A stretch of DNA of 59,394 nucleotides, counting the filler. It is 3 parts of 3 records of this genome, joined end to end, with 100 filler letters (N's around TTAATTAATTAA, not from the genome) between each part and the next. Parts side by side here need not be neighbours in the genome. Positions count along the whole stretch, not along the records: positions 46,474 to 59,394 come from SRR20825019_90; 2 more parts are not named here. One strand, 5' to 3'. The notes beneath the pieces were generated by a model. That model was not told the DNA's origin and searched no databases. It worked only from the letters and a program-made list of their open reading frames with translations. Below are positions 11,717-59,394 of the stretch, in pieces. Numbering within the stretch: the first letter of the stretch is position 1; each line of letters starts with the position of its first letter. The position numbers and the translations under genes were made by a program.

Positions 11717-11769
11717 TTTTAAACAAAACATTGTTGTGCCGTTAAAAATTCCTTCCTATATTTGATGCA

Positions 11770-11826
11770 ATGATTAACAGAATATCAAATAATTGGTGGT
11801 GGATTAACTTACGTCGAACTTCGTGA
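11770..11826 (+). CDS. trpL: trp operon leader peptide MINRISNNWWWINLRRTS
   Basis: 18-codon ORF with three consecutive TGG codons, just after a TATATTTG -7 element (11757-11764) and upstream of trpE; absent from the ORF track. Confidence 0.85.
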   Translation: MINRISNNWWWINLRRTS

Positions 11827-11881
11827 GCTAAGTCCCCATTATAATCATACAAGAGGCTTGTCATCACGACAGGCCTTTTTT
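11821..11881 (+). promoter_or_regulatory. trp attenuator (terminator and antiterminator)
   Basis: Terminator AGGCTTGTC-ATCAC-GACAGGCCT-TTTTT (11854-11881); alternative pairing of TCGTGA (11821-11826) with TCACGA (11864-11869). Confidence 0.8.
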
Positions 11882-14412: not shown

Positions 14413-14512
14413 NNNNNNNNNNNNNNNNNNNNNNNNNNNNNNNNNNNNNNNNNNNNTTAATTAATTAANNNNNNNNNNNNNNNNNNNNNNNNNNNNNNNN
14501 NNNNNNNNNNNN
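14413..14512. other. Artificial contig spacer
   Basis: N-run / TTAATTAATTAA (stops in all six frames) / N-run; exactly 100 nt. Confidence 0.97.
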
Positions 14513-14882: not shown

Positions 14883-17800
14883 CTACAACCCTTGTAAATC
14901 CACTTGGCGCATTGCGATGAATGCCTTCAGAATTCGTTCTCCCACTCCAGGAACTTCAACATGTACAAGGTAGACTCCAGATGCGATCGGAATATTCGTA
15001 TCATTCACAAGCAACCAATCGATATATGTAACCGAATTAGATTTCTTAAATGATTTTATCAATTTTCCACTCGTACTGTATATGCGAACTGTGCAGATTT
15101 CTGGCAGATTTGTGATTTTAACCCGTGTATCTAATCTGTTTCTTTCATAATCAGAATACGCATTGTACGGATTTGGAACAATATTAATTAGATCCAGCGC
15201 ATCTGCCAATTGATCTGTACTTCCCGTTTGAGTTTGAATATCATCCATATTCCAAGAATACATTGGCATTCCATCGTTCTTTCCTGTTGCAACCAAATTC
15301 TTAAACTGCTTACTTACCCGCACTCGAATCGTTGCATCCGTTGGAAGGTTTCTTGGATCAATAGAATAACCCGGAGAAGCCATTGGGAAAGCTGTCCATC
15401 CAAAGTTGGAATAGAAATCTCTTTTTTGAGCTACTCCTCCTGTAACTGCGGCTTGAAATTTCAGATAAGCTTCATTCGTTGCGTCGTTTTCTCCAATATA
15501 CGGAATATACTCTGGGAAGTCAGTCGCTAAGGAGTATCCATTAATCGTCTTGCTCATATAGTTCAGTACATAGAATGGTTGCATTCCACCTAATATCGGT
15601 TCTCCAACGCCGTTAAAGAATCGATCGGTTGGATTCCAAATCAAATCTGCTCCGTTGTCTCCACTTAGGAAAGAGTTCTCCCCGAAAATCATATAGAGTC
15701 TTCTTCCTGATTCTAAATCGATCGCATAACCTGGAAACCATCCCATTCCTGTACCTGGACCAACGGGGTTTCCGTTCTTATCTACACTCGGAGTTTTTCT
15801 CAATTCACCACGTTTTGCATTTCCAACATTCAATGCTTGATCACCGCCTAACTCCATAACTGGACAGCGCGTCCACTTCGATTTATCGCTCGTAATTACA
15901 ATATCTATACTTGGAAGTGACGTGATAGAAGCAATTTGTTTGAATGAGCTTCCGCCTGTAACATAAGCCATAGGTGTATATCCAAATTCGTGTCCCACTA
16001 TCCTGTTTGGAGCAATCGTTCCTCCCAAAATTCTGTCCCAATTTTTCTCGTTATCCGCGTTCAATTGATCTGGATAAAGGCAAGGATCTGTAGGAAATGG
16101 GTTAGGCCCACAAGGATCGCTAGGAACATACGTCCCTGATCTAATCCAATTCAATGGATTGAACTGATCATTGTCTGGTACACCCGACATCCAACGCTTG
16201 GAACTATCTCCAAACGTAAGTGATGCCTCTAAAAATTCTGTCGTTCTCAGATAAGGCTGACCATTCGCTCCTTGTGGAAAATCGTACTTCGGTTGGGTAA
16301 TATGAACCGAAACTCCCCATTTTGGAATTAGTTGTTCATTATTTTTGTTGATCGTTCGCTCCGAAGTCACAGAATCAACGGCAACATTTGAACCTGTTTC
16401 ATATCGGTAAATGATCCACGACGCGGTATCTGCTCCATTGATAGAAGTAGTTCCATAGTTTCTGAATTTACATTCGTATGACCCACCAGTTACACCCAAA
16501 GGATCTATCACTTTTATTTTAATTGGCCCTTGTCCATAATTGTAAGACGGTCTCTCGAGTAATCCATTTGCAATGATCGTATTCTTAGAGTCAGCTGTAA
16601 GTTCAAGAACTCCGCCTCCATTACCATGCCCATCTTCACGGGTAATTATCGGTCCTGATCCGTAGGCAATATTTTGTCCTGTTCCTCCAGCTTCTGGCTT
16701 CGGATTATGAGGTGTTGCGTCGATTATCTTAACTTCTCCAACAGCCGCTTTTCTACTTGAAATGTATTTCTTTTTCTGACCGTCTATCGCCATCGGGTCA
16801 TTCGGGTTGTAATCTTTGTAGTTGTTGTAGGCGTACGCAACCGCTACATAATAATACTTTTTAAAATTCACGAGTGTTCTGTTTCCTATCGCAAACTGAT
16901 CTTCTGTAACCCTAAAACTGTGTCGAATGCCCTTGTTCTCTCCTTTCACTCTTTCTACTGGATAACTCGCTTGCAGCCCTTCGTCATACTCAAAGTTTAT
17001 GATCGTTGAAACGTTATCTTCAATATCGCATTGAGCCACTAAACGTGCAATAGATTGATCTTGTAGATCTGAGATAGCTACATCCGCTGCTCTCAACTGG
17101 AAAATTTGATACCCTTGAAAGCGATAGTTTTTATCTGCATTCGGATCTTCCGCTACGATAAATGGATCAAATTCTATGTATTCTTCGTTGAAATTATTTG
17201 AGTTTACAGGATTTGAAATTGTCAAAATCAATTCATTTTCCAATTCTTGCACATTCATTTCTGGTGCATGAGGGGCGTCCAGTACTTTAAAGCAATTTTC
17301 AAAAAGTGCTTGTGCTTTATCATCGGCGCGTCTTAAAACTTCTACTGATGCAAATGGGTCTCCACCGTTTGCAGATCTTGCCCAAACAACACCCACGGTG
17401 ATATTATTTACTGCTCCTGGTTTTAAAACGAAAGGTCCAGCTGATTGCACAAAACGTCGATCATAAGGAGGATTTCCTGCAGTTTGCTCCGTCCAAATTG
17501 GTTGTGGACTTCCTCCTGTTCCCCAACCTAATGGGTCTGTATCTCCAGGGAACATGAAATCACACTGAATAGATGTATTCGTTGTTGGGTCCGAAAGGTG
17601 TCCAGATCCTCCGTAGTAAAAAGGCGATCCATCTTTCCAATATCCACGTAAATAATTGTAATAATCTGTCGCTGCAATTGGATCTGTTTGACTTGAATTG
17701 CCTTGCCCAGTGTTACTGTAATAAAGAAATCTCCTCATTCCAAAACGCTCATTATCGACAATCCCATCGCCGTATCCAATTCCGTTCAATGCTTCAAGTG

Positions 17801-31191: not shown

Positions 31192-34100
31192 ATGATTCTC
31201 AAAAGAACTGTTCTCTCCGCCCTTTTTGGAATGTTCGCATTGTACTCGAATGTTCTAATTGCTCAGACCCCGCAAAACGGTCTGAAACCCTCTCGCCCAG
31301 AGGTGTACGCGCTCACAAACGCCACTGTATATGTATCTCCAGACAAGAAAATTGAAGGCGCAACAGTGATCATAGAAGGTGATAAAATCGTGAAAATGGG
31401 AAGCCTGGTCAAGATCCCAAATAACGCTATCGAAATTGATTGTTCAAATAAGATTATCATTCCATCATTTATTGAGTTATACTCTTCGATTGGAATTCCT
31501 GAACAAAAACGAGAAGGATGGAATCCCAACCCGCAAACAGAATCAAGTAAAAAAGGCGCTTACTATTGGAATGAAAGCATCCAGCCTGAAACAGATGCGG
31601 CGCAATTATACACTCAGGATTCGAAAGCAGAGGACGAACTTATTTCCAAGGGGTTTGGATATGCTTTAACGCATGTTCAGAACGGAATCGCTCGCGGAAA
31701 GGGCGCATTTGTGGCTTTAGGGGCTCATCCAGAGGATCAATCGCTTACAACGTGGACAAAAACAAGTTTTTATTCTTTTAACAAAGGAACTTCTCGCCAA
31801 TCTTATCCATCTTCTCAAATGGGTTCGATCGCACTTTTACGACAAGCATTTTACGATGCCGTTTGGTATAAAAACACTCAGCCGCTTGAAAAAAACCTTT
31901 CCTTGGAGGCATTAAATAGCCAGTCTAGCAACGTTCTCTTTTTCAACGTTGAAGATCATTGGGAAATTCTTCGCGCTCAGAAAATTGGGAAAGAGTTCAA
32001 TTTAAAATTCAACTATATTGGCTCAGGATCCGAGTATTCAATCATTGAAGAACTTAAAGAATTCAAAGGAAGCATAGTAATTCCAATTGACTTTCCAGCG
32101 GCGTATGACGTTACTAACCCTTATGTTGCACGACAAATTCCATTAAGCGATTTAAAACATTGGGACCTCGCTCCTAAAAACCCTGCAATCCTTGCCGAAA
32201 ATGGCATCAAATTCTGTATTTCTTCAGTTGGACATAAAACGTCGAAAGATTTCTGGGAACATTTACGATTGGCAATTAAGCACGGTTTGAGTGAAAAAGA
32301 TGCATTAGCGGCTTTGACAACTTATCCGGCAGCGTTAATAGGAATCGACGAAGAAACTGGAACTCTTGAAGTTGGTAAAAAAGCGAGTTTTGCAATTTAT
32401 GATTTGAATCCGTTCCAAGAAAAGGCAACTATCCTTGAATCATGGGTACTCGGAAATAGAAAGGTGATTTCTATTGCTCCGTTAGAAGGCATTGCTAGCA
32501 CCTATAATTTACTAATCGATCAGCGTAAATTTCCATTGGTCATTGAAGGAGAAGGAGATCAATTTAAAGGGAAAATTAACTATCCGATGATGGTGATGAA
32601 GGATGGTATTTCTAAGATCGACACATTTAAAATTGTCCCGAAAATTCTGGTGAGTCAGAATGATATTACCATTCAATTCGCTATTTCCGATACACTCTGG
32701 AAAGGAAGCGTAAATCTCCGAGGGAAAATTAACACTAAACTAGGCGTATTTGAGGGCGAAGGAATGATCCCCTCAGGTAAGTGGGTGAAATGGTCGGCTG
32801 TAAGAAGCGGCAAATCGAAAGATGTCGTTAAAGACCAAACACCAGCACCGTCTCTCATAGACAGCAATACGGTAGTTTGGTTTCCTAATATGGCTTACGG
32901 CTTTGATTCAATTCCAGCCTCTGAAAACCTCATCATTGAGAATGCTACTATTTGGACAAACGAAAGTGATGGAATTTTGACGAAAGCTTCGATTGTCATT
33001 CAAAATGGTAAAATCACCTACTGTGGAACGGGAAGTTTCTCTCGCCCAAAAAACGCGCGTGTGATTGATGCCAATGGAATGCACGTAACTTCGGGGATTA
33101 TCGATGAGCATTCGCATATCGCGATTTCAAAAGGAGTAAACGAAGGAGGACAAGCGATTGTTGCTGAAGTTTCCATCGGAGACGTTGTGCATTCAGATGA
33201 CATTAATATTTACAGACAACTTTCAGGTGGAGTTACCACTGCCCAATTATTACATGGTTCTGCAGATCCAATTGGCGGTCAATCGGCGCTTATTAAGCTC
33301 AAATGGGGATCAACACCTGAGGAAATGCTTATAGATGACGCCCCTAAGTTTATCAAGTTCGCCCTAGGAGAAAATGTTAAACAATCCAACTGGGGAAGCT
33401 ACAACACGGTTCGATTCCCGCAAACTCGCATGGGCGTTGAACAAGTTTACTTTGATGGATTTAGCAGAGCGCGCACGTACTTGGATGATAAAAAGCGATT
33501 TACTTCGGGCAATCTAAAGATTAAGCCTCGCATAGATCTCGAACTAGAAGTACTTGCTGAAATTCTACAAGGAAATCGTTTCATTACCTGTCACTCTTAT
33601 GTTCAATCTGAGATCAATATGCTCATGCACGTGGCCGATTCAATGGGGTTCAAAATCAACACATTCACGCATATTTTGGAAGGATATAAACTAGCCGACA
33701 AAATGGCTAAACATGGTGCTGGAGCATCGACCTTTTCGGACTGGTGGGCCTATAAATACGAAGTAAATGACGCAATTCCCTACAATGCAGTAATGCTTCA
33801 CGATCAAGGAGTAGTTGTTGCCATTAACTCAGACGACGCCGAGATGGGGAGAAGACTCAATCAAGAAGCGGCTAAAGCTGTTAAGTACGGTGGAATGTCA
33901 GAAGAGAACGCTTGGAAAATGGTTACTTTGAACCCTGCTAAACTCCTTCACTTAGACGATAGAATTGGTTCGCTAAAAGTGGGGAAAGATGCGGATATCG
34001 TGATTTGGAGTGATAATCCACTTTCCATTTTAGCAAAGGTAAACTACTCAATTATTGAAGGAGCTGTTCTTTACGACGCCTCTGCACAAGATAGTCTACA

Positions 34101-46373: not shown

Positions 46374-46473
46374 NNNNNNNNNNNNNNNNNNNNNNNNNNN
46401 NNNNNNNNNNNNNNNNNTTAATTAATTAANNNNNNNNNNNNNNNNNNNNNNNNNNNNNNNNNNNNNNNNNNNN
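46374..46473. other. Artificial contig spacer
   Basis: N-run / TTAATTAATTAA / N-run; 100 nt; composition switches from AT-rich to GC-rich across it. Confidence 0.97.
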
Positions 46474-46475
46474 AT

Positions 46476-46649
46476 CTTTCCCTCGCCCAGAAACACGCCT
46501 GGAACCTCGCCCGCACCCTCATGATTCCGGTCATCCTCTTCAAGTCCGACGACGAATATGGCGTCCTGCCCGCCGACGAGGTCGACGACGCCGAGATAGT
46601 CATCCTCTTCGAATACGACCCTTACACCGGCGGTCATTCTGTCCACTGA
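46476..46649 (+). CDS. Small hypothetical protein, 5'-truncated
   Basis: Manual translation LSLAQKHAWNLARTLMIPVILFKSDDEYGVLPADEVDDAEIVILFEYDPYTGGHSVH*, with high GC at third codon positions; followed by hairpin 46673-46695. Confidence 0.65.
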   Translation, partial: LSLAQKHAWNLARTLMIPVILFKSDDEYGVLPADEVDDAEIVILFEYDPYTGGHSVH

Positions 46650-46761
46650 CAGCTCAACTATTTCCTGTCTCGAAGGCGGCGCACTGCGCCGCCTTTCTGC
46701 TTTACCGGCACACCGGCGGTGGTCCGTCCCGGGAAAGATCCGGGCGGAGCCGGCAGCACCG

Positions 46762-46925
46762 GCAACGGCTTTGCCGTCCTCCTCTTCGTTCCGGCCCTTC
46801 GCCACCCCGCCGCGCTGCGCGCACCGAGGCCTCGGCTCGGGTGCCGCTCCTGCCTTGAGCCCCGCCGTTTTCGGACCTCGTGACGGACCGCGATCGGCGC
46901 GGTCCTGAAATCAGGAGGTCTGAAA
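46762..46925 (+). promoter_or_regulatory. Conserved structured upstream element, copy A (before ardC)
   Basis: Shares ordered sequence blocks with copy B at 48316-48503. Confidence 0.65.
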
Positions 46926-47855
46926 ATGAAAAGGAAAGAGAAAAGCCCGCGCGTCGATATCTATGCGCGGATCACCGAGACGATTGTCACTGAACTGGAA
47001 AAAGGTGTGCGCCCCTGGATGAAACCCTGGAGCGCGGGCGGGCTCGAAGGCCGGATCACGCGACCACTTCGCGCCACCGGCGAGCCCTACACGGGCATCA
47101 ATGTCCTCCTGCTCTGGTCGGAAAGCCTCGCCCGAGGCTTCGAAGCGCCACTGTGGATGACCTACCGGCAGGCCGGTCAGATCGGGGCACAGGTCCGCAA
47201 GGGCGAGACCGGCGCAACCGTCGTCTATGCCAGCCGCTTCACGAAGACCGAAACGGATTCCCGTGGCGACGAGGTCGAGCGGGATATCCCGTTCCTCAAG
47301 ACCTACACCGTCTTCAATTGCGATCAGATCGATGGATTGCCTGAGCAGTTTTATCACCGGCCGGACAAGATCACCGATCCGTTATCGCGTATCGAGCACG
47401 CGGACCGCTTCTTCGAACATACCGGCGCTGTCATCCGCCACGGCGGCGCAAAAGCCTTCTTCGCTCCCGCAAGCGACCACATCCAGATGCCGCCCTTCGA
47501 GAGCTTCCGGGATGCGGAATCCTACGTGGCTGTCCTCTGCCACGAGGCAACCCACTGGACGGCGCCAGCGCACCGGGTCGGACGCGATCTTTCGCGTTAT
47601 CACAAGGATCGCTCCGACCGCGCTCGTGAAGAACTCATTGCCGAGCTCGGAAGTTGCTTCCTGTGCGCCGATTTGGGTGTGGTGCCTGAGCTGGAGCCCC
47701 GGCCGGATCACGCAAGCTACCTCCACTCCTGGCTGAAGGTCCTCAAGGACGACAAGCGGGCGATCTTTCAGGCGGCGGCGCATGCACAACGCGCCGTGAC
47801 CTATCTTCATGGTCTTCAACCGGCTCGGCTTACTGAAGAGCAAGAGGCGGCGTAA
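46926..47855 (+). CDS. ardC: Antirestriction protein ArdC (ssDNA-binding domain + zincin-like domain)
   Basis: PWMKPW, YTGINVLLLW, WMTYRQA, QVRKGE, YTVFN, HEATHWT, EELIAELGS, SYLHSWL. Confidence 0.93.
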   Translation: MKRKEKSPRVDIYARITETIVTELEKGVRPWMKPWSAGGLEGRITRPLRATGEPYTGINVLLLWSESLARGFEAPLWMTYRQAGQIGAQVRKGETGATVVYASRFTKTETDSRGDEVERDIPFLKTYTVFNCDQIDGLPEQFYHRPDKITDPLSRIEHADRFFEHTGAVIRHGGAKAFFAPASDHIQMPPFESFRDAESYVAVLCHEATHWTAPAHRVGRDLSRYHKDRSDRAREELIAELGSCFLCADLGVVPELEPRPDHASYLHSWLKVLKDDKRAIFQAAAHAQRAVTYLHGLQPARLTEEQEAA

Positions 47856-48315
47856 TGCATTCCTTCCGAATGACCCTGGCGGAGTGCGATCAGCTCTCCG
47901 CCGGGCCGTATCCCGGCTTTGCAGTGCTCGTGTCTACCACAGCAATGATACCGCTTCCTCATCGGCTATATCGAGGTTGTGAATAAGGGATCAAAAGGCT
48001 TTGGTCATCACGGCCCTTGCGTCGATGTACCTGCTCATTCCCTTTCGATCGCCACAACATCCAAACTTAGTTCAACGCACTGTGGGGGATGAGAGCGGTG
48101 TCGCATTCTGTGAGAAAGGCTCGACAGCGCCACGTGGTAACCTCGTCGTTGGCAAGGGCTTCATGTTATGCTGTCCGATCATATTTCGGATCGGGGGTTG
48201 CGATACGACGGTTGCCGGTCTTCACTCCCGTTCAAATGTCACCAACGCGCCGCCCAATGCGGTCTCGATTGAGGCATGTCTGACCGGAAAACGGCTTCGC
48301 CTCGCTCGGCCTGAC

Positions 48316-48503
48316 GCAACGGCGCTTCGAAACTTTCTTCCCCTTCGAACTTCATTCGAATTCCTCGCGAGCCAAGAAAGTGTCTCCCCGCCGTCCTCCA
48401 TTTCATTCCGTCCCCTTTGGGGTGCGCGCCGATCGCTCCCGGTCTCCTGACAGCCATCGAGGCCGCGATAGGCGCTGCCCGAAACATCGAAAGGATGAAG
48501 ACA
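48316..48503 (+). promoter_or_regulatory. Conserved structured upstream element, copy B (before DUF736)
   Basis: Shares ordered sequence blocks with copy A at 46762-46925. Confidence 0.65.
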
Positions 48504-48821
48504 ATGGCAAACATCGGCACTTTCACCACCACCAAGAACGGCTTCACCGGTCAGATCAAGACCCTCGCCCTAAACGTCAAGGCCCGCCTCGAGCGCGTCG
48601 AAGCCCCTTCCGAGAACGGCCCACAGTTCCGCATCTTCTCCGGTGCAGTTGAACTGGGCGCCGGGTGGCAGAAGCAGGCGAAGGGAACCGAGCGGGATTA
48701 CATCTCGGTCAAGCTGGACGATCCGAGCTTCCCTGCTCCGATCTACGCAACCCTGATCGAGGTGGACGGTCAGGAAGGGCTGCAACTGATCTGGTCCCGC
48801 CCGAACGGCAATCGCGACTAA
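48504..48821 (+). CDS. DUF736 family protein
   Basis: MANIGTF...G.I.TL.LNVK...ELGAGW...[17 protein letters not shown]...LIWSR; ATG 48504 preceded by AAAGGA. Confidence 0.88.
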
Positions 48822-48928
48822 CCGCCGGAGGAGGGCCTCGTCGCAAGACGGGGCCTTCCGCGCGATGGGGTGTATTGAACTTCGGCTGCAAATGAACTAA
48901 GTTGAATGGACTAAGCAGGAGCACCGCT

Positions 48929-49174
48929 ATGCACACCGTCAATATCCACGAGGCCAAGACACACCTGTCGCGTCTGATAGAGAAGGCCGCGAAGGGCGAA
49001 CCCTTTATCATCGCCAAAGCGGGCAAACCGCTTGTGAAGGTCATGGCGCTGGATGCACCGATGCCCGGCGCAACAAAGCGCACCGGCTTCATGGCCGGTC
49101 AGTTCACCGTGCCTGATGACTTTGATTGCATGGGTGACGAAGACATCGAAGCAATGTTTGGAGGCGATGCGTGA
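48929..49174 (+). CDS. Phd/YefM family antitoxin
   Basis: VNIHEAKTHLSRL...GE...IAKAGKP; ATG 48929 preceded by AGGAG. Confidence 0.92.
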   Translation: MHTVNIHEAKTHLSRLIEKAAKGEPFIIAKAGKPLVKVMALDAPMPGATKRTGFMAGQFTVPDDFDCMGDEDIEAMFGGDA

Positions 49175-49557
49175 GGTTCCTTCTCGATACCCATCTTCTT
49201 TTGTGGGCCGCAAGCGATCCAGAGCAGTTGCCCGCACAAGCGCGTGCCGAAATCGAGAACTCCGACAACGATTTGATCTTTAGCGCGGCGAGTCTTTGGG
49301 AAGTCGCTATCAAGACAGGCCTGGGACGCCCGGATTTCGCGGTCGATCCACGGTTACTGAGGCGTGGGTTGGTGGACAATGGCTATCATGAACTGGCGAT
49401 CACCGGTGAACATGCGATCGGCCTTTTGGTGCTTCCTCCCATACACAAGGATCCTTTCGATCGTATTCTGATTGCGCAGGCCGTTGCCGAGGGAATTGTC
49501 CTGATGACCGTGGACGAGAAGATCGCGCGATATCCGGCGCCGGTCCGGTGCTTTTGA
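49171..49557 (+). CDS. vapC: VapC PIN-domain toxin
   Basis: LLDTH, SAASLWE, HKDPFDR; GTGA overlap with the antitoxin. Confidence 0.92.
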   Translation: MRFLLDTHLLLWAASDPEQLPAQARAEIENSDNDLIFSAASLWEVAIKTGLGRPDFAVDPRLLRRGLVDNGYHELAITGEHAIGLLVLPPIHKDPFDRILIAQAVAEGIVLMTVDEKIARYPAPVRCF

Positions 49558-49588
49558 TTGTTCGCAACATCGGTGGGCGTCAAAGCTA

Positions 49589-49849
49589 TCAGCGCCGCTG
49601 TACTGCCGCATCGCGATATCCGCGGCGCCTTTTGCTACGCTCAAGACGGTGCAGCGCGGACCCTGCATCGGCGTTCGTATCGAATGTTTCCATCATCGTC
49701 TGACCGCGTCTTCCAATCCTTCCCCAGTCGCGAATGAGCGACGCGCCGCCGAACAGCGTGGGCTGAAGGCTCAGGCTGTAGAAGCGGCGCATATTCTGGG
49801 CCGGGTCGATGCGACGAAGATGAACCTGGTCGGGAGTGAATGTCTGCAT
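49589..49849 (-). CDS. Stand-alone WGR domain protein
   Basis: DPAQNMRRFY...QPTLFG...WGRIG...KRRRGY; ATG 49849 chosen as start. Confidence 0.88.
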   Translation of the reverse strand: MQTFTPDQVHLRRIDPAQNMRRFYSLSLQPTLFGGASLIRDWGRIGRRGQTMMETFDTNADAGSALHRLERSKRRRGYRDAAVQRR

Positions 49850-49945
49850 GCGAAGAGTCTCTTCGACACCGCAACCGAAGTCCAATGAGTTGTGTGAATC
49901 AAAGCAGGACAATTGATTCACAACGTTGATACACATTCCTCGCGA

Positions 49946-51856
49946 TCAGCGATGGAACCGGTTCTTGCCAACGACGCTTTTCATGTCATTGCGCCGAAAC
50001 CAGATGGCGCGTCCGCATCTGAGCGGCGGATTACCCGACGTGAAAACGATCTGTTCGTCACCGCGCATGCGCAGCACTTCCTCCGGCAGGATCAGGGGCC
50101 GTGCCGCCAACTGCTTGGAGCGCGTTCGCGACGACCCCGACATCTGCGATGTGCGGCTCAACTGGTCGACCTCCACCGTGGTGTTGCCGCAGCGTCGCGA
50201 GATGTAGTCGGCGGTCTCCGGATCGTTGATCGCCGCGAAGGACACCCAGGACGCGCTCTCGAACCACTTCGATGTGGCATCGCGTCCGCCATAGGTTTCC
50301 CGCATCTGCCCGATGGACTGGAATAGCAGCAAGAGACTGATTCCGTATTTACGCCCGGCATCCCGTGCGGTTTCCAGAATGCGCAGATAGCCGAGCCGAG
50401 CCACCTCATCGAGCAGGAACAGGGTGCGGCCGCCGATCTCGCCATTTCGGTTGTAGATGGCGTTGAGAAGCGCGCCGATGATGGTGCGGGCCAACCCCGG
50501 ATGGGCCTCCAGTGTTTTAAGGTCTAGGTTGACGAAGATGTCGGTCTTGCCGCCGGCGATGTCATCGGTCGAGCAGCTCGAACCTGAAACGAGTGCAGCA
50601 TAGTTCGGGTAGCTCAGCCAGTGTGTTTCCTTGATCGCGTTGGCGTAAACACCGGAGAAGGTTTCCGGCGTCATGTTGACGAAGGCGGCGACGTTCTCTC
50701 GAACGAATGCGGATTCTGAATTGTCGTGGATCCTCTGCAATCGCTCGCGCAATTTGGGCTCAGGTTCGGACAGGTTCATGCGCATCTGGCGCAGCGTCTG
50801 GTTTTCCTTTTCCGTATGCCCTGACAGGCAGACGTCGGCGATCAGCGCGGTGATGAGTTGCAGGGCGGAGGCGCGGAAGAAGTCGTCGCGCATTGAAGTC
50901 TGACGTCCGGTATCGGTCACAACCCAGCTAGCGACGGCGACGACATCCTCCTCCTTGGTACCGCCGAACCTGCCGATCCAGTCGAGCACATTGAACCCGA
51001 CCGAAGCGTCCTTGGGGCTGAGCACGAAAACCTCATGTCCTGCACGCCGCCGCTGGTCGATCACCATGGGTGCGGCCTCGTTTGACGGATCGAGCGCAAC
51101 GAGGCCCCCACCCCATTTGAGCGCAGTAGGGATCGTTACCGAAGTGGTCTTGAACCCACCAGATCCGGCAAAGACCAGTCCGTGCGTCGATCCGAACGAG
51201 GCGTCGAAGCAGAGCAGCGATGACTTCCCGCCATTGCCCCATGTATCCTCGACGTCGGCCCGGAATGGTTGGTTCGCCACACTGTCCTGGTCGACGCGAT
51301 ATGCCTCGCCAAGCACGATACCGCCACCCTCACCGAACATATTCTTGGCGGCGGCGACGGACATCCAGTCGGCTGATCCGTGGATTGCGCGCTTTCCCGT
51401 CATCCGCCGCGGCTTCATTGTCGCGAACGCCGCATCACCACTGAGAGCGACGCGGAGCGCAAACATGCCAGCCACAAAACAGAGTATTGCGCCGATGCCG
51501 GTCGAAGGATCGGCATATTCGAGCAGGCTGTGTCCCGCCGGAACCTTATCTGCAAAGCCGCTGAGGCGTGTAAATTCCCGCGTCGCGGCAACGGCGATCA
51601 CGGCAATTGCACCGGTCAGAACACCGTAGCCGGCGAACCTGATCGCCATTGCTCCGCGCGCTGCAAACAGGAAAACGATGCCGAGACCCGCGGCTAGGCT
51701 ATAGGGTATGGCGATGCCGATCCGCCCAAACGTCTGTTGCGTCTCAACCGAATTTCCAAATTGCGCCAACCAGGCTTCGGAACCTTTTAACCCGATGCAG
51801 ACGGCGATCATCATGCCGACAGGCGCGAGCAGAAGAATGAGCTTACTCGGTGTCAT
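49946..51856 (-). CDS. traG: Ti-type conjugative coupling protein TraG (VirD4 family)
   Basis: N-terminal TM segments; [38 protein letters not shown]. Confidence 0.95.
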
Positions 51857-52058
51857 CTGAAAACGCCTCCGCTCCGATCGCCATCAACCGTTCTCGCTCA
51901 TTCTCGTCGCCTTCGATCCGCCGCGTGCCGTCGATCAGAAGGCCAAGCAGGAGCGCGCGCTTCTCGTAGCGCAAGCCTGCCTTGGCAATCAGGCCGCCGA
52001 GCTGAATTTTCTCGCGCGTGTCTTTCCTGCGCTTTTCCGATTGGCTTGCTTGTCGCAT
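51843..52058 (-). CDS. traD: Conjugal transfer protein TraD
   Basis: [20 protein letters not shown]...LLGLL; 71 aa from ATG 52058. Confidence 0.9.
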
Positions 52059-52062
52059 GCGC

Positions 52063-52326
52063 TCAAGCCTCGCTATTTGTGCGCGAAGCCGTGCCAGACG
52101 GGTTTTGCGCGGGAGGGAGTTTCCGGGTCTCGCTGCCGCGTTCACGAAACCGTTTGGCCAGGTCCTCAAACGCCGTCAGCAGCTTGCCGTCATCGGCTTC
52201 GACTTCGCCAATCCCTGCCTTGAGCGCGATCCGGCCGATCCGTTCGGCCTCACGCGTCTCTGCGGCCTTCAGCTGCTCCTGGAGTTTGGCGATTTCTTCT
52301 TTGATTCTGGATGATGGCTTCTTCAT
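52063..52326 (-). CDS. traC: Conjugal transfer protein TraC
   Basis: [37 protein letters not shown]. Confidence 0.92.
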
Positions 52327-52468
52327 TCCGTTTGCTCCCGATTGTCACGAATGCCCCGAAGGCATGAGGAGAATCGCCCGGGAGCGCGTGAAGCGCATCC
52401 CGGCAGAAATGCCGGGTCGGCAGATCCGACGCTTTGAGAGATCATCCCTGCGTTCCGAAGGAATGCGT

Positions 52469-52502
52469 CCAAGGGCGCAGTAATACGTCGCTGGAGCGAC
52501 GT
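52469..52502 (-). other. Origin of transfer (oriT), MOBQ/Ti type; predicted nick between 52476 and 52475 on the minus strand
   Basis: Minus strand ACGTCGCT-CC-AGCGACGT-ATTACTGCG^CCCTTGG: an inverted repeat followed by a TGCG^CCCT core as in RSF1010/pTi oriT, between divergent traC and traA. Confidence 0.88.
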
Positions 52503-52582
52503 GGCTCGCTGCGGCCCCAGTCGGGCCGGGGCGGCGGCCTGCGGAACAAGGATGAACTTGTGTCGCAGGAGCCTGATGAACC

Positions 52583-55500
52583 GTGGCGATCACGCATTTT
52601 ACACCTCAGCTTATTTCCCGTGGCAACGGCCGCAGCGCCGTTCTGTCCGCAGCCTATCGCCATTGCGCGAAAATGAGCCACGAGGCGGAAGCGCGCACCG
52701 TCGACTATTCAAACAAGAAGAACCTGGCCCACGAAGAATTCCTGCTACCCGCCGATGCTCCGAAATGGGCGCTGGACATGATCGCCGATCGTTCGGTTGC
52801 CGGGGCAGCGGAAGCCTTCTGGAACAAGGTAGAGGCATTCGAAAAACGCAACGACGCCCAGCTCGCCAAGGAATTTATTGTCGCTTTGCCCGTCGAGCTT
52901 ACTCGCGACCAGAACATCGCGCTCGTCCAGCAGTTCGTCTCAGAGCAGGTGCTCGCTCGCGGGCAAGTGGCCGATTGGGTCTTCCATAACGATCCCGGCA
53001 ATCCGCATATCCATCTGATGACGACATTGCGTCCGCTCACCCAGGACGGGTTCGGTTCCAAGAAGGTCGCGGTGATTGGCCCGGATGGAAATCCGGTTCG
53101 AACCAAAACCGGGAAAATCCAATACAAACTTTGGTCCGGCGAGAAGGCGGAATTCCTCGAACAGCGGCAGAGATGGCTCGATCTCCAAAACCATCACCTG
53201 GCAATGGCCGGTCTCGAAATCCGTGTCGATGGCCGGTCCTACGCCGAACGCAGCATCGACATCGAGCCGACAACCCATATCGGCGTTGCGGCAAAGGCGC
53301 TGCAGCGCAAGGCGGGCGATGCGGGAACCAGGATCGATCTCGAACGGCTGGCATTGCATGAGGCCCAACGGAAAAAGAACGCCGCCCGGATCGAGCACAG
53401 GCCTGAACTCGTTTTCGATATACTGACGTCCGAACGAAGCGTCTTCGATCAGCGCGATATAGCCAAGGTCTTGCATCGCTATGTCGACGATCCGGAGCGC
53501 TTCCAGCGGCTTCTCACTCGGATTACGGAAAGCCCGGAATGCCTGAAACTCACTGACGAGACAATCGACTTTGCGACCGGGGCGCGGGTCGCGGCACGGC
53601 TGACGACCCGGGGGATGATCAGGCTCGAGGCCGAAATGATTTCCCGCGCAAACTGGCTTTCGGGAAGGGACGGGTTCGCGGTTGCGGCGAAAGTCCTGGA
53701 AACCGTCTTTGCCCGGCATGATAGGCTGTCGGAAGAACAGCGCACTGCCATTGCACATGTGGCAGGATCGGAGCGGATCGAAGCGATAGTGGGACGGGCA
53801 GGAGCCGGCAAGACCACGATGATGAAGGCTGCCCGTGAAGCCTGGGAGTTGGCCGGCTTTAACGTCGTTGGTGGTGCGCTTGCAGGTAAGGCGGCGGAGG
53901 GTTTGGAGAAAGAGGCCGGCATTCCCTCCCGTACGCTGGCGTCGTGGGAGCTCAATTGGAAACAGGGACACCGGCGTCTCGATGGCAAGACGATATTCGT
54001 GCTCGATGAAGCGGGCATGGTGTCGTCCCGACAGATGGCGACCTTCGTCGAAGCGATCACGAAAGCCGGCGCCAAACTCGTCCTGGTCGGTGATGCCGAG
54101 CAGCTCCAGCCCATCGAGGCGGGTGCTGCCTTTCGTGCCATCGTCGAACGCACCGGCTATGCCGAGCTCGAAACCATCTATCGCCAGAAAGAAGACTGGA
54201 TGCGCGCCGCCTCGCTCGATCTGGCGCGCGGGCGCGTTGCCGAAGCGCTGTCATCTTATGGCGCGAAAGGCCGGGTAATTGGGCGGCCGCTCAAGCTTGA
54301 CGCCATCGAAACGCTGATTGCCGACTGGAACCGCGACTACGATCCGGACAAATCAACCTTGATACTCGCGCATCTGCGCCGCGATGTACGCCAGCTCAAC
54401 ATCATGGCGCGTGAAAAGCTCGCTGAACGCGGTCTGATCGAAGAAGGCCACGCCTTCAAGACCGAGGATGGACCCCGGCAGTTTGCCGTTGGCGACCAGA
54501 TCGTGTTCCTTAAGAACGAAGGTTCGCTTGGCGTCAAGAACGGCATGATAGGCAAGATTGTCGAGGCAGCGCCTGGGCGTATCGTTGCGAGCATTGGCGA
54601 GGGTGATGGCGTACACCGCGTTACCGTCGATCAGCGTTTCTATCGCAATCTTGATCATGGCTATGCGACGACGATCCACAAATCGCAAGGTGCAACCGTC
54701 GACTGCGTCAAGGTGCTCGCCTCGCTCTCGCTCGACCGGCATCTAACCTATGTCGCGATGACGCGGCACCGGGAGGACATGGCGCTCTATTACGGCAGCC
54801 GATCCTTCAAGATGGCTGGCGGGCTTGAGAAACTTCTCTCCCGACAGAACGGCAAGGAAGTCACGCTCGACTATGCGAACGGCCGCTTCTATGCCCAGGC
54901 GCTTCGCTTCGCCAACAATCGCGGCCTGCATCTCGTTCGCGTTGCCCGAACGCTGATGCGCGATCGGGTCCAATGGACTATCCGGCAGAAACGGAGACTC
55001 GTCGATCTCGGTGTCCGGCTTCGCACCGCCGGCGCGCGGCTCGGTCTTGTCGACCATCCGCTTCACCAATCCAGTCAAACAGCCAGAAAAGCCGAGCCAA
55101 TGGTCAAAGGCGTCTCCAGTTTTACAATGTCGATCACCGACGCGGTCGCCGAAAAGCTGCAGTCCGATCCGGCCCTGCAAAAGCAGTGGGACAATCTCTC
55201 TGACCGTATTCGTCTTGTCTATGCGGATCCAGAAACCGCCTTCAAGGCGATGCGTATGGAGACCGTTCTGGAAGACGCGAGCGTTGCCCGCCAGCGTCTT
55301 GGCGAAATCGAACTGAATGCGGCAAGCTTCGGTGCGTTGCGCGGCCGCGATGGTCTGTTGGCAAGCCGCTCGGACTTGGAAAACCGCCGAGTGGCCGAGA
55401 TCAATGTTCCTGCGCTCCGTCGCGATCTCGAGCGCTATTTGGACATGCGACAGAACGCGATGAACAAGTACGCTGCCGAGGAGGAAGGACACCGCAAGCG

Positions 55501-55894
55501 CACCTCGATCGATATTCCGTCGCTGTCGCCAGCGGCTGCGCGGGCCATGGAGAAGGTGCGGGACGCCATCGACCGCAACGACCTGCCGGCAGCACTTGGA
55601 TTTGCCCTGGCCGACCGCATGGTGAAGGCCGAACTTGATACCCTCAACAAGGCGGTATCCGAACGGTTCGGAGAACGGACCTTGCTCGGCAACGGTGCTA
55701 GGGACCCCTCGGGTTCGACCTTCGACAAAGCGGCCAAGGGTATGTCGCCGGCCGAGAAGCAGAAGCTTGCTGCCGCCTGGCCGTTCATGCGCGCTGGCCA
55801 GCAGCTCATCGCCCAGCAACGGACCCAGCAGGCACTGAAGGAATCGGAAGCGTTGCGGCAAACGCAGAGTAAGAGCCAAGGGCTCAAGCAATGA
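52583..55894 (+). CDS. traA: Ti-type conjugative relaxase-helicase TraA (MOBQ)
   Basis: SAAYR catalytic Tyr, H....NPHIH metal motif, GRAGAGKT Walker A, DEAGM, HKSQG. Confidence 0.96.
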
Positions 55895-56421
55895 CACGGA
55901 GGCGACGCATTGCCGTAGTGACAGCGCTTCTTTTCCTTCCTGTCGCCTTGTTTGTCGCAGCCTATGGGATGGGGCTGAGGATCAATCTGACGCCGAGCTA
56001 TCCGCTCGGGATCTGGCGCATAGAGATGCTGAGTCGCGCCAATAGCATTGGGGATCGAATCTTCATCTGTCCGCCGTTAACGCACGAGTTTCGACGGGCC
56101 CGTGAGCGCGGATATCTGCGCCGCGGCATTTGCCCAGGCTGGCTTAGTCCGTTGATCAAGACCGTTGTTGCACTCCCCGGACAGTCGATTGAAATCGGCG
56201 CGTCTGTCGTGATCGACGGAGTGGATTTGCCGCGATCCGCGGTCCAGCCAAACGATGGTTGGGGCAGGCCGATAACGCCCTACGCCGGTGGTGCAGTCCC
56301 GCCGGGTTTTCTGTTTCTCCACTCACCATTCAAGGGTTCTTATGACTCACGATATTTCGGGCCGATCCCGGCCGATGGAGTTCTCGGGCTGGCGACGCCC
56401 ATCCTTACCTTCGTTCCGTGA
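55891..56421 (+). CDS. traF: Conjugative transfer signal peptidase TraF (S26)
   Basis: [32 protein letters not shown]. Confidence 0.93.
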
Positions 56422-57565
56422 CGGCCTGGTTTGCCTGAGCTTTATCGCAGGCAGTGCCGTTGTCGGCGCGATTGCCTGGAGTGGCGAAGTGCTGGCCTTG
56501 CCCGCTGCTGTCTTGTTTCCGACGCTCTGGGCGTTTGCACCCAACCGGTTCGTTGCGGGTTTGGTGGCGCTGGCCTATTTCCTTGCAGCGTCGCGCGGGC
56601 TGCCTGTTGGCGTCTCAATCTTCTATGCGAGTGATATGTGGGTCGGGCTCAGTCTATGGCTCACGGCCTCGGTTCTTTTCGTCCTCGTGCACAGCTTGAT
56701 TTGGACATCGAAGTCCGGGTGGCACAAACCGTTGCGTTACGCGCTTGCATGGATCCTGATGAGCGTTCCGCCTTTTGGCATCACCGGTTGGGCGAACCCG
56801 ATCACGGCCGCTGGTGTCTTGTTCCCGGGCCTCGGCTGGTTTGGATTGATAGCCATGGCTCACACCTTATCTGCGATGACGACGCGGGTTTGGCCGATCG
56901 TTGCTCTTATCGTTGGTGCCTTTGTCGCACTGTCAGCTAAGGGCTGGAGCGAACCGCATCCACCGGAAGGCTGGATTGGCATTGACACGCACTTCAACTA
57001 TGCCTCTCCCGGTCAACACGCGGATTATGCGCAGCATCTCGCCACGCTGGCATTGGTTCAGGACGCGGCGAAAGCCGGCGTGAAAAATATCGCTCTTCCC
57101 GAAAGCGCCTTCGGGATCTGGACACCGACCACCGAACACCTCTGGGTCCGCGCACTTCAGGACCTTGATGTGACGGTGAATGGGGGTGCAATCCTTGTCA
57201 GTGCCGAGGGCTACGACAACGTCATGATCGAAGTGTCAGGGAAGGTCGCACAAATCCTCTACCGGGAGCGCATGCCGGTGCCGGTTTCGATGTGGCAACC
57301 CTGGGCATCGGGTGGCGCGACGGCCCATGTCTTTGGAAAGCCTGCCGGCAGTTTTGCCGGGACGCTTATAGCTCCTCTGATCTGCTACGAGCAGCTCCTG
57401 GTTTGGCCGATCCTGCAGTCGATGATCTACAAACCGAGCGTCATTGTGGCAACCGGCAATGGCTGGTGGACCGGCGACACCAACATCGTTGCAATCCAGA
57501 AGGCGGCCGCCCGGGCCTGGGCATCGCTGTTCGGCGTGCCGCTCGTGATCGCCTTTAATACCTGA
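56375..57565 (+). CDS. traB: Conjugal transfer protein TraB (start uncertain)
   Basis: [53 protein letters not shown]. Confidence 0.88.
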
Positions 57566-57697
57566 CAGGATTCCCCATCAAACAACGCTTGGAAGCTGAC
57601 GATCTAGAACTTGTCTGGTTCGACAACTATGCATTGCATATGCGACTCATAATGGAAATATTGCGCCCGAATCGCAGGTTCCGGGAAAGGTAGGACG

Positions 57698-58435
57698 TTG
57701 GAGAATATCGCAGATTCCGATTTGATGGACGCACTCTCGAAAATTTCAGATGTTGCTGACCGAAACTCGACAATCGAGTTCCTGAAAGACGTGGCCTCCC
57801 GATACGCATTGAATACCATTGCGTATTTTGGTGTCGGCGTTTCTGGTCAAAATGAGATCGATCCCTATCTCGCCGTAACCTATTCTCCCGAGTGGGTCGC
57901 GCACTACAAGAACCGGCAGTATGTCGATGTCGATCCAGTTGTTCGTCTTGGCTTTCGCCGTATGCTTCCCCTTGATTGGGACGAGTTTGGAAATCCGACG
58001 GGGCGGCTGAAGACCTTTTTTGGTGAAGCCGGCGAATTCGGTATCGGGCTCCGCGGACTGACAGTTCCAGTGCACGGTCGCTGCGGCGACCGTGCCTTGT
58101 TCTCCGTGACGTCAGATCTTTCCGCCCGCGACTGGGCGAGCGCGAAACTTCTCTATATGCGTGACTTCCAGGTTCTTGCGACGCACATCCACGATCGTGT
58201 GCTTGGCATCGAGGGACATGCGAGCGAGCCTGCAGTTCTTTCTCCGCGTGAACTGGAATGCCTGCAATGGATCGCCGAGGGCAAGACGGCCTGGGAATGC
58301 GCTGTCATTCTCGGCCTGTCGCAGCACACCGTGCGCTGCTATCTGGAGAGCGCCCGCCACAAGCTCCATGCCACCAGCAATACCCATGCCGTTTCAATCG
58401 CTCATAGAGCGGGGCTGCTCTTTGATCCCTTGTAA
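57698..58435 (+). CDS. LuxR-family AHL-responsive transcriptional regulator
   Basis: Autoinducer-domain residues Y..EW...Y......DPVV...W...A..FG..G; HTH LSPRELECLQW.AEGKT..E.A.ILG.S..TV. Start is TTG 57698 or ATG 57725. Confidence 0.92.
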   Translation: MENIADSDLMDALSKISDVADRNSTIEFLKDVASRYALNTIAYFGVGVSGQNEIDPYLAVTYSPEWVAHYKNRQYVDVDPVVRLGFRRMLPLDWDEFGNPTGRLKTFFGEAGEFGIGLRGLTVPVHGRCGDRALFSVTSDLSARDWASAKLLYMRDFQVLATHIHDRVLGIEGHASEPAVLSPRELECLQWIAEGKTAWECAVILGLSQHTVRCYLESARHKLHATSNTHAVSIAHRAGLLFDPL

Positions 58436-58521
58436 ACCCAGCTGTTGGACCGGATGTTCTTCTCGAAACCCAGCCGATAACTGGTGTCTCCGTCATCAAT
58501 GAATGAACGGAGACCACCATC

Positions 58522-59193
58522 ATGATATTTGCAGTCGAAAGTGCCGATCAGGACAAGTATCCCGAGCTGTTCGACGAAATGTTCCGCATGCGGGCCGAAG
58601 TCTTTTCTGGTCGCCTTGGCTGGGACGTCAAAGTCGAAAACGGACGGGAGATCGACCGGTTCGATGCCGAAGACCCTCTCTACCTTCTGTCGCTCGATGA
58701 AAGGTCAGGACAGCTTCGTGGCGCTGTGCGTCTGCTCCCCACGACCGGTCCCAACATGCTCAGAGACGTGTTTTCCGTGCTGATGCCTGGTGGCACGGTC
58801 GAAAGTCCATTGATCTGGGAGAGCTCACGTTTTGCGGTCAATCCGCAAATCTTCGAGGCGAGGGATCGGGCAGAAGCAAACCACATGGTCAACCGAACCA
58901 CTGTCGAGCTTTTGTGCGGGATGGTTGAAGTCGCCCAGCGGGCCGGCATCGAACACATCGTATCGGTCTTCGACGCCCGAATGGCGCGGATTTTCAGGTC
59001 GATCGATTGCCGCTTCGAACAAGTGGGCACGCCAGTGCGGATCGGGAAGGTCATGATCTATGCCGGTCTGTTCGACACAGGCGCCGACATGCGGTCGCGG
59101 CTTGGAGCAGCGGGGGATTTTCGTTCATCTGTTCTCGCTGATGGTGCAATCGCTCCAGCGTCGGCAACCGCACTTGTTGCGAATGTCGAATAA
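58522..59193 (+). CDS. LuxI-family acyl-homoserine-lactone synthase
   Basis: R..VF..RLGW, E.D.FD, RLLPTTGP.ML...F, WESSRF. Confidence 0.94.
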   Translation: MIFAVESADQDKYPELFDEMFRMRAEVFSGRLGWDVKVENGREIDRFDAEDPLYLLSLDERSGQLRGAVRLLPTTGPNMLRDVFSVLMPGGTVESPLIWESSRFAVNPQIFEARDRAEANHMVNRTTVELLCGMVEVAQRAGIEHIVSVFDARMARIFRSIDCRFEQVGTPVRIGKVMIYAGLFDTGADMRSRLGAAGDFRSSVLADGAIAPASATALVANVE

Positions 59194-59394
59194 TTTCAAT
59201 GTAAACATCCGGGCTGGCGTCTGGCGTTCATCATCCTGATGAAATATGCTTTTCCCCGAGGCGGTACGCGCCGCCTCGGGGCGTAGAAACCCCACCACAG
59301 CGGTTTGGTGTCGGCCGACCCGACACCCAGGATCCTCTGGCCATTGGCCGGGGGCTTGTGACGTATGTCCAGGTGCCTCGGTGCTAAAGGTCGC

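Follow-up and report, generated by a model that had tools for sequence, protein, structure and literature searches.

Background

Whether a conjugative plasmid survives its entry into a new cell is decided by the early expression of anti-defence genes. The sole mechanism known to act before second-strand synthesis, that of the Frpo/ssp elements, has so far been studied only in F and I plasmids of enterobacteria. The ArdK-controlled establishment promoters of IncW plasmids use short repeats, which lie upstream of ardC and other genes and are bound on duplex DNA. Here we describe a window of DNA (the whole stretch that was analysed, 59,394 nucleotides (nt)) that contains two copies, A and B, of a structured cis element, one directly upstream of ardC and the other directly upstream of a DUF736 gene. 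The element belongs to a real, widespread, selected and structured family of three classes, which is tied to leading-region genes. Plasmids of the Ti (tumour-inducing), Ri (root-inducing) and symbiotic type, with a TraA relaxase and a TraG coupling protein, and their relatives place it before ardC, DUF736 and an open reading frame (ORF) of 57 amino acids (aa).

In the passages available to us, the surveys for Frpo/ssp elements relied on blast comparison to five known sequences, on -35/-10 hexamers and on the fold, and covered enterobacterial and a few other islands (PMC11541004, PMC13478746, 10.64898/2026.01.09.698686). The accessible text of PMC11541004 does not mention Agrobacterium, Rhizobi-, DUF736, ArdC or MOBQ; that of PMC13478746 does not mention MOBQ, Agrobacterium or Rhizob-, and that of 10.64898/2026.01.09.698686 names neither Agrobacterium nor Alphaproteobacteria. 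A literature search returned no paper joining DUF736 with the term “leading region”. According to the available passages of a bioRxiv preprint of October 2026 (10.64898/2026.10.21.760802), its cluster #378,112 is an unnamed covarying motif 5' of DUF736, given with no further analysis.

Two homologous copies in the window

Copy A (class A, 46733-46925, plus strand) lies directly 5' of ardC (46926-47855, plus strand; 309 aa; Pfam ArdcN 3e-42, MPTase-PolyVal 4.4e-49). It consists of a core, GCAACGGC-TTT-GCCGTCCTCC, a long variable hairpin (46795-46841), a 3' arm and a hairpin next to the Shine-Dalgarno (SD) sequence (46885-46905, plus strand; GGACCGCG / CGCGGTCC, loop ATCGG). The SD itself is AGGAGG at 46913-46918. 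Copy B (class B, 48247-48503, plus strand) lies directly 5' of the DUF736 gene (48504-48821, plus strand; 105 aa; Pfam PF05284, 7.3e-33) and comprises a branched hairpin of ~230 nt and the SD region, with AAGGA at 48491-48495. The 5' arm of its outer stem (48258-48287) pairs with the 3' arm (48439-48467), a pairing that shows covariation, and an internal subdomain (48319-48394) is closed by an ACGGC/GCCGT stem. The last bases of the 3' arm, GGCCGCG (48461-48467), have alternative partners, either the 5' arm or CGCTGCC at 48473-48479; with the latter they form the SD-proximal hairpin of B (48461-48479, plus strand; loop ATAGG). In the window this hairpin has one C.T mismatch, which is absent from most relatives.

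An earlier note on this DNA had described the two intergenic regions as the same ordered blocks with differences mainly in loops, and this description holds. All named blocks are where they had been placed, with GCAACGGC at 46762 and 48316 and GCCGTCCTCC at 46773 and 48390, and in the alignment the length differences between A and B fall in loops. The ACGGC/GCCGT stem closes 3 nt in A (46765-46777) and 66 nt in B (48319-48394), where ACTTTCTT/AAGAAAGT is nested within it (48332-39/48374-81). The CCCC-TTT-GGGG hairpin of B (48412-48422) corresponds to the long hairpin of A.

Homology was confirmed by reciprocal profile matches, with the window left out of the profiles. An nhmmer profile of the DUF736-upstream region (254 nt, 72 other loci) matches B (48252-48503) with E=6.6e-63 and A (46770-46942) with E=1.2e-6, and a profile of the ardC-upstream region (19 other loci) matches A (46735-46911) with E=4.3e-28 and B with E=6.3e-6. 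To judge from the alignment, A is a shortened form of the B element that lacks the internal subdomain. The matches show that A and B are homologous, and sequence comparison indicates that they represent two paralogous classes of a conserved structured cis element that has a third class elsewhere.

A terminator-like hairpin with a T-rich tail (46673-46703, plus strand; stem 46673-82/46686-95, loop ACT) closes an upstream partial ORF (stop 46647-46649) about 30 nt before copy A. It was identified by reading the sequence and is not among the hits of the consensus terminator scan. In an alignment of 20 loci, a comparable GC hairpin and T run stand before most ardC-upstream copies.

Structure and covariation

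Folding of the window copy of B yields one branched hairpin over 48247-48480 on both strands, the base of which is ~25 nt from the start codon. As DNA, the minus strand folds with -55.6 kcal/mol (z -1.8). This fold was projected onto 51 sequences (50 representatives of <90% identity plus the window), and 52 pairs in 11 helices were supported. The fraction of paired cells is 92.6%, compared with 89.2% in shuffles and 33-47% in slid controls, and the covariation score is 0.125 compared with 0.065 and 0.034-0.057, respectively. Because the structure was derived from one of the aligned sequences, the slid controls are at a disadvantage. Changes on both sides of the pair were found in 17/52 pairs as opposed to 8.7 ± 1.5 in shuffles, none of 500 of which reached 17. 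The comparison thus shows a covarying structure in B, well in line with the multi-hairpin element that had been proposed.

The outer stem is made up of helices 2-4, in which compensatory changes among 70 sequences are found at 48277/48452 (TA 32, GC 14), 48283/48443 (AT 55, GC 8) and 48284/48442 (CG 56, TA 5). In the internal subdomain (helices 9 and 10), 6/13 pairs have changed on both sides. CTCGAT/ATCGAG and other blocks are invariant in the 51 sequences. The SD-proximal hairpin of B has 6 pairs in the same 51 sequences, and for that of A RNAalifold gives 8 pairs with compensatory GC/AU and CG/UA changes (31 of 41 distinct class-A 3' regions). Support in class A is limited to the core and this hairpin.

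The mean unpaired probability of the SD window in class A is 0.34 (41 sequences), and in the predicted fold of copy A the SD pairs with CCTC of GGACCTC (46874-46879) and not with the CCTCCT suggested in the earlier note. A switch model for class A was rejected, as loss of the 5' 40 nt in silico left SD accessibility alike (0.34 vs 0.32). Neither A nor B has a match at gathering score in Rfam; four matches returned for 46474-49000 have E values of 0.7-2.9 and are all far under the gathering score.

Distribution and selection

Further copies were sought in 74 loci, which had been chosen by the DUF736 protein alone. They contain 81 full class-B, 41 class-A and 9 class-C copies, each on the strand of its gene. 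The element is directly 5' of DUF736 in 73/74 loci, and the remaining locus has just 32 nt of upstream sequence. DUF736 is often duplicated, and every duplicate carries its own class-B element. The nine class-C copies precede the 57-aa ORF; a tenth is found in pRi1724, which has four element copies inside 6 kb.

By blastn, A-like DNA is present in 315 plasmid records and B-like DNA in 630. The latter comprise 439 conjugative, 35 mobilizable and 156 non-mobilizable plasmids (474/630 conjugative or mobilizable), chiefly from Agrobacterium, Rhizobium, Bradyrhizobium and Sinorhizobium. When the phylum was sampled evenly, DUF736 turned up in 43/401 genomes, and the element is upstream at 21/30 loci returned; nine more divergent DUF736 genes of this sample are without it. 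A blastn survey of the taxonomic class found B in at least 12/401 genomes, a minimum value, since scoring was limited to two candidates per genome.

Over 48255-48480 the mean identity to the window is 0.734, compared with 0.543 at four-fold degenerate sites of the adjoining gene, and the element is more conserved than these sites in 70/72 loci. These comparisons show that the element is widely conserved and under selection. Three ORFs overlap B (48001-48450, 48380-48652 and, on the minus strand, 48239-48547). A protein-coding reading of B was rejected, since conserved blocks contain one-base indels and there are optional inserts of 30 nt. Synonymous conservation at the start of the DUF736 coding sequence was likewise discarded as a sign of an overlapping signal: third positions are C/G-biased throughout the gene and therefore provide no local signal.

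Several variants were seen among the copies. An optional palindromic module of 30 nt, CACCCCA-stem-loop-stem-GGGGACCC, occurs in either of two class-B loops (loci L002-L069; for example L007:2778-2807 and L007:2882-2912). It has compensatory stem changes of its own, 20/21 instances are within element copies, and all are on the plus strand. On a Bradyrhizobium plasmid (L108, 20012-20183) a class-A copy precedes an IS256 transposase instead of ardC, and on a Jiella plasmid (L006, 1382-1503 and 2866-2999) a class-B copy is interrupted by an insert of ~1.36 kb.

Position relative to the origin of transfer

The core of the origin of transfer (oriT; 52465-52502, minus strand) consists of a perfect 8-nt inverted repeat (52485-92/52495-502) and, after it on the minus strand, a nick-like core that is rich in GC. 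The nicked strand generally carries the repeat on the 5' side of the nick. Due to this polarity we infer that the minus strand is the one transferred, so that ardC and DUF736 would be read from the transferred strand. The predicted entry order would be traC-traD-traG, DUF736, ardC. The core is placed between traC/traD/traG on the minus strand and traA on the plus strand, which is the location given for class I oriT in the available passages of PMC4700958.

The oriT is in view in five replicons, namely the window, pRi1724, a Roseibium plasmid, pTiCFBP5877 and a Bradyrhizobium plasmid. In all five the copies are found beyond traC-traD-traG, away from traA, and on the strand opposite to traCDG. 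Leading-region placement with the transferred strand as template, as the earlier note had suggested, thus applies to 5/5 replicons if the transferred strand is deduced from the polarity of the repeat. The expected orientation bias was also found: there is no minus-strand copy in 150,978 nt of flanks. The copies are co-oriented and adjoin the traG-oriT region. In pTiCFBP5877 (L107), a ProQ/FinO-family gene is found on either side of the transfer region (16079-16474 and 31900-32232), and one of the pair is located two genes upstream of ardC. Their products could serve as RNA chaperones, either of a structured leader or of an antisense RNA.

Which strand folds

In a sense RNA, G.U mismatches are tolerated and A.C mismatches avoided; a fold on the opposite strand gives the mirror image of this spectrum. 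For the 45 pairs of the main hairpin of B, parsimony counts 26 plus-type (G.T) and 51 minus-type (A.C) events (binomial p=0.006). An independent profile alignment of 70 sequences gives 33 and 63 events (p=0.003). The mismatch spectrum of the main hairpin thus leans to the transferred strand, as would be expected from the single-strand proposal. The SD-proximal hairpins lean the other way, with 12 plus-type events (20 cells) vs 6 minus-type events (6 cells) in B and 21 G.U cells vs 5 A.C cells in A. Within B, the contrast between the main and the SD-proximal hairpin has a Fisher p of 0.015.

The main hairpin of B has a consensus energy of -33.5 on the minus strand, compared with -24.5 on the plus strand; for the 3' part the values are -8.0 (plus) and -1.7 (minus). 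The minus strand is the stabler one in 47/51 sequences; single-sequence z-scores are -3.28 (minus) and -2.80 (plus), with the minus strand lower in 18/26 sequences. Together, these comparisons support a large fold of the minus strand with moderate strength, and they are good evidence for a role of the SD-proximal hairpin in the mRNA. The main hairpin would accordingly be one that folds in the transferred strand.

Possible functions of the element

We tentatively favour a reading in which the element is a single-strand element of the transferred strand, similar to Frpo/ssi, whose 3' part becomes a structured mRNA leader. When the transferred (minus) strand enters the recipient, the branched hairpin of ~230 nt would form as single-stranded DNA. 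The folded strand would then be an entry point for transcription and/or priming toward the gene, as in Frpo/ssi of F and IncI1, and the 3' arm and SD-proximal hairpin would become the 5' end of the mRNA, where they may affect its stability or translation. A promoter or primer activity of the element is suggested by analogy. In favour of this reading are the repeated copies before different genes, their position and the polarity of oriT, the covarying structure of B, the strand lean of its main hairpin and the mobility of most matching plasmids. That no ordinary sigma-70-like promoter was found upstream, and that copy A begins ~30 nt past a terminator-like hairpin, also count in its favour. The earlier note had proposed an alphaproteobacterial counterpart of such elements. 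This proposal is partly supported: the homologous multi-hairpin family, its covariation, the lack of an Rfam match and the inferred leading-region layout all agree with it; promoter hexamers and a sequence likeness to Frpo are not found. The element ties DUF736 to ardC as a co-controlled establishment gene. A more far-reaching version, which we consider rather unlikely, would make this the first single-strand promoter/primer family outside enterobacterial F/I plasmids: a branched DNA fold of Ti, Ri and symbiosis plasmids that fires ardC, DUF736 and the small ORF on entry without a canonical -35/-10, and whose 3' arm doubles as a translational gate in the mRNA.

A number of observations weigh against a single-strand promoter. 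No sigma-70-like promoter was found by scanning the plus strand of 46474-49300 with the E. coli consensus, compared with which alphaproteobacterial promoters are looser, and by eye the arms of B contain a GACA-type half of a -35 in both and no -10. The architecture, in which a multi-way junction carries unpaired motifs that do not vary and stems that may be extended, is more typical of protein- or ligand-binding RNA than of a simple Frpo hairpin; taken together with the G.U-rich SD-proximal hairpin, it indicates that the 3' part, at the least, works as RNA. Most of 20 class-A sequences have the SD paired in their minimum free energy structure. The long-range outer stem has no support in this class, with a structure conservation index of ~0.1 on either strand in consensus folding and a mean duplex-energy z against shuffles of +0.18 (0/41 below -2), both of which tests are uninformative. 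The strand bias is modest, as 14/63 minus-type events in the 70-sequence alignment stem from a single pair and “other” mismatches are as frequent (117 events), and the gap in strand stability is, to judge from shuffles, mostly base composition. B has no blastn match at E<=0.01 in 5,426 complete E. coli genomes with F-type plasmids (20,395 records), a comparison with Frpo that is indirect because known Frpo sequences were not the queries. The orientation has an exception as well. Chromosomal locus L103 has a divergent DUF736 pair, each gene with a copy, one of them on the minus strand (916-1020); G661, with DUF736 genes on opposite strands ~4 kb apart, may be a second such locus. Finally, if RNA-library contigs that cover the element are RNA, the whole element is transcribed in established cells.

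These contigs come from three studies and span the 5' arms and upstream DNA, at 48215-48529 (with 198 nt more upstream), 46664-46801 and 48114-48323 (X1 record 6, X3 record 9 and X8 record 16). They are unstranded and have a depth of 2.5-5, so that DNA carry-over is possible and neither starts nor strands can be read from them. At most 0.15 of the words are covered in any run, and the lack of cover over 47832-48139 is uninformative. The promoter and terminator scan listed nothing within A or B, and no sigma-54, extracytoplasmic function (ECF) or Caulobacter-type promoter fitted in A or B when these were read by eye only. Scanning and reading of both arms revealed no promoter hexamers in the stems, in agreement with the earlier note, which had likewise seen no clear -35/-10. 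The only minus-strand promoter-like site is at 47974-47945.

A purely RNA-level cis-regulatory leader is a rival reading that we hold to be only slightly less likely. The whole element would be the 5' untranslated region or the intercistronic spacer of a long leading-region operon. The closing stem and conserved junction would bind a shared trans factor (a protein of the plasmid, a metabolite, or a small RNA acting with a ProQ/FinO chaperone). The 3' arm, the SD-proximal hairpin and the ribosome site would pair in mutually exclusive ways, and these would set translation or mRNA stability. A factor that is absent in a fresh recipient would then lead to a burst of expression. In every class the element ends exactly at the SD, and both SD-proximal hairpins have compensatory changes and the excess of plus-strand G.U cells given above. 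Most predicted folds of class A have the SD paired, with lineage-specific flanking complements (mean unpaired probability 0.34), the GGCCGCG of B can pair with the 5' arm or the downstream strand, and the junction combines invariant unpaired motifs with optional stems that have compensatory changes of their own. RNA-library contigs that cross the 5' arms, ProQ/FinO-family genes in the same region of pTiCFBP5877, and the preprint, which in its available passages names the covarying DUF736-upstream motif as a candidate non-coding RNA (10.64898/2026.10.21.760802), also fit a leader. However, plus-strand wobbles are the rarer type in the main hairpin (26 vs 51 and 33 vs 63 events), and a sense RNA should show the reverse. 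Upstream of the 5' arm no conserved promoter was found, removal of this arm in silico did not alter SD accessibility in class A, and the SD of B is free in the predicted fold. The low-depth, unstranded contigs may moreover be DNA.

Two further explanations do not involve a sense leader, and we regard both as improbable. The element could be a duplex operator or promoter cassette for an ArdK-like plasmid repressor, in which case the inverted repeats would be protein sites and not folds. The invariance of CTCGAT/ATCGAG and other blocks and the sharing of the element by co-regulated genes agree with this idea. However, 17/52 compensatory pairs, many of them 100-200 nt apart, and helix lengths that vary through optional hairpins would be unexpected for duplex sites, and 250 nt at 0.73 identity far exceed the needs of an operator. 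Slightly more improbable still is a structured antisense RNA from the minus strand that represses the ardC and DUF736 leaders, as FinP does for traJ or as in the repABC countertranscript. Main-hairpin mismatches, consensus energy and z-scores do lean to the minus strand, and paralogous copies would permit cross-regulation; against this, the scan revealed no minus-strand promoter-like site in or just right of A and B, reading of the left borders revealed no minus-strand terminator-like hairpin with a T run, and the reads give no strand information. The remainder of our expectation falls to other explanations.

Source and gene content of the surrounding DNA

The window joins three contigs by N linkers with TTAATTAATTAA at 14413-14512 and 46374-46473, and copy A is therefore only ~260 nt from a contig end (46474). 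Contigs 1 and 2 have a G+C content of ~40%, with a Bacteroidetes trp leader at 11750-11862, and are from another organism than contig 3. The latter (46474-59394, G+C 57-61%, ~59% overall) is a fragment of a rhizobial class I conjugative plasmid. Its presence in this metagenome-assembled genome is probably due to mis-binning.

Pfam was run on 15 ORFs of contig 3, and a family was found for 12. Besides ardC and DUF736, the plus strand encodes a phd/PIN toxin-antitoxin pair, the traA relaxase-helicase (52583-55894) with a C-terminal BID domain (Bep_C_terminal, 1.1e-34), traF, traB, a luxR-type gene and a luxI-type gene; a WGR-domain gene, traG and traD are on the minus strand. The BID domain is a type IV secretion signal. 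The spacer between ardC and copy B (47856-48246, ~390 nt) lacks conservation among loci and is uncovered in four RNA libraries. An unsupported ORF of 149 aa (48001-48450) runs from this spacer into B and has no Pfam family.

The nearest relative of the DUF736 protein, with 99% identity, is encoded on a Hoeflea alexandrii contig. According to the available passages of PMC8627217, DUF736 (msi110) is a backbone gene of Mesorhizobium integrative and conjugative elements and is often duplicated. The predicted fold, modelled from 22 sequences, is an eight-stranded beta barrel (predicted local distance difference test score, pLDDT, 81.4). The model has no Foldseek match at E<=0.001, and the top VIA-align hits (Z 6.0) are unrelated barrels; without a convincing solved relative, the predicted fold gives no functional lead.

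Comparison with known systems

Cluster #378,112 of the preprint is, like B, a covarying non-coding motif directly 5' of DUF736, although the two were compared by description only (10.64898/2026.10.21.760802). Because the preprint already gives a DUF736-upstream motif, the novelty of our finding is reduced. Unlike the present account, its available passages are silent on ardC, paralogous classes, conjugation and single-stranded DNA.

The element resembles riboswitch-type and protein-binding leaders in that a long-range stem closes it, its junction is conserved while the peripheral stems vary, and its 3' strand also takes part in an SD hairpin. It differs from them in that its main body does not have the wobble spectrum expected of a sense RNA, and in having neither an Rfam match nor a known ligand or factor. 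If it is an RNA leader nevertheless, it would represent a new and abundant cis-regulatory RNA of plasmid establishment. As in the ArdK system of IncW plasmids, a shared upstream element joins ardC with other leading-region genes; the long-range compensatory pairing sets the present element apart.

Compared with Frpo/ssi (ssp1a, ssp1b and ssp2) of F and IncI1 plasmids, the element is branched, abuts the SD and has no recognisable -35/-10 in the stem. Its hosts are Alphaproteobacteria with MOBQ TraA plasmids, and it is known from sequence alone. What the systems have in common, as far as the available passages on Frpo/ssi go, is considerable. Several homologous copies of 250-330 nt are located in the leading region (PMC11541004, PMC13478746, 10.64898/2026.01.09.698686). 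They are upstream of establishment genes including an anti-restriction gene, the transferred strand is the template, which in our case would follow from the polarity of oriT, and each is a long, imperfect, GC-rich hairpin. The present element has defined borders and a testable structure, and it is present in 630 plasmid records, Ti, Ri and symbiosis plasmids among them, at a matching place and with a different relaxase class. Such an element at the matching place makes single-strand promoters in non-enterobacterial plasmids directly testable.

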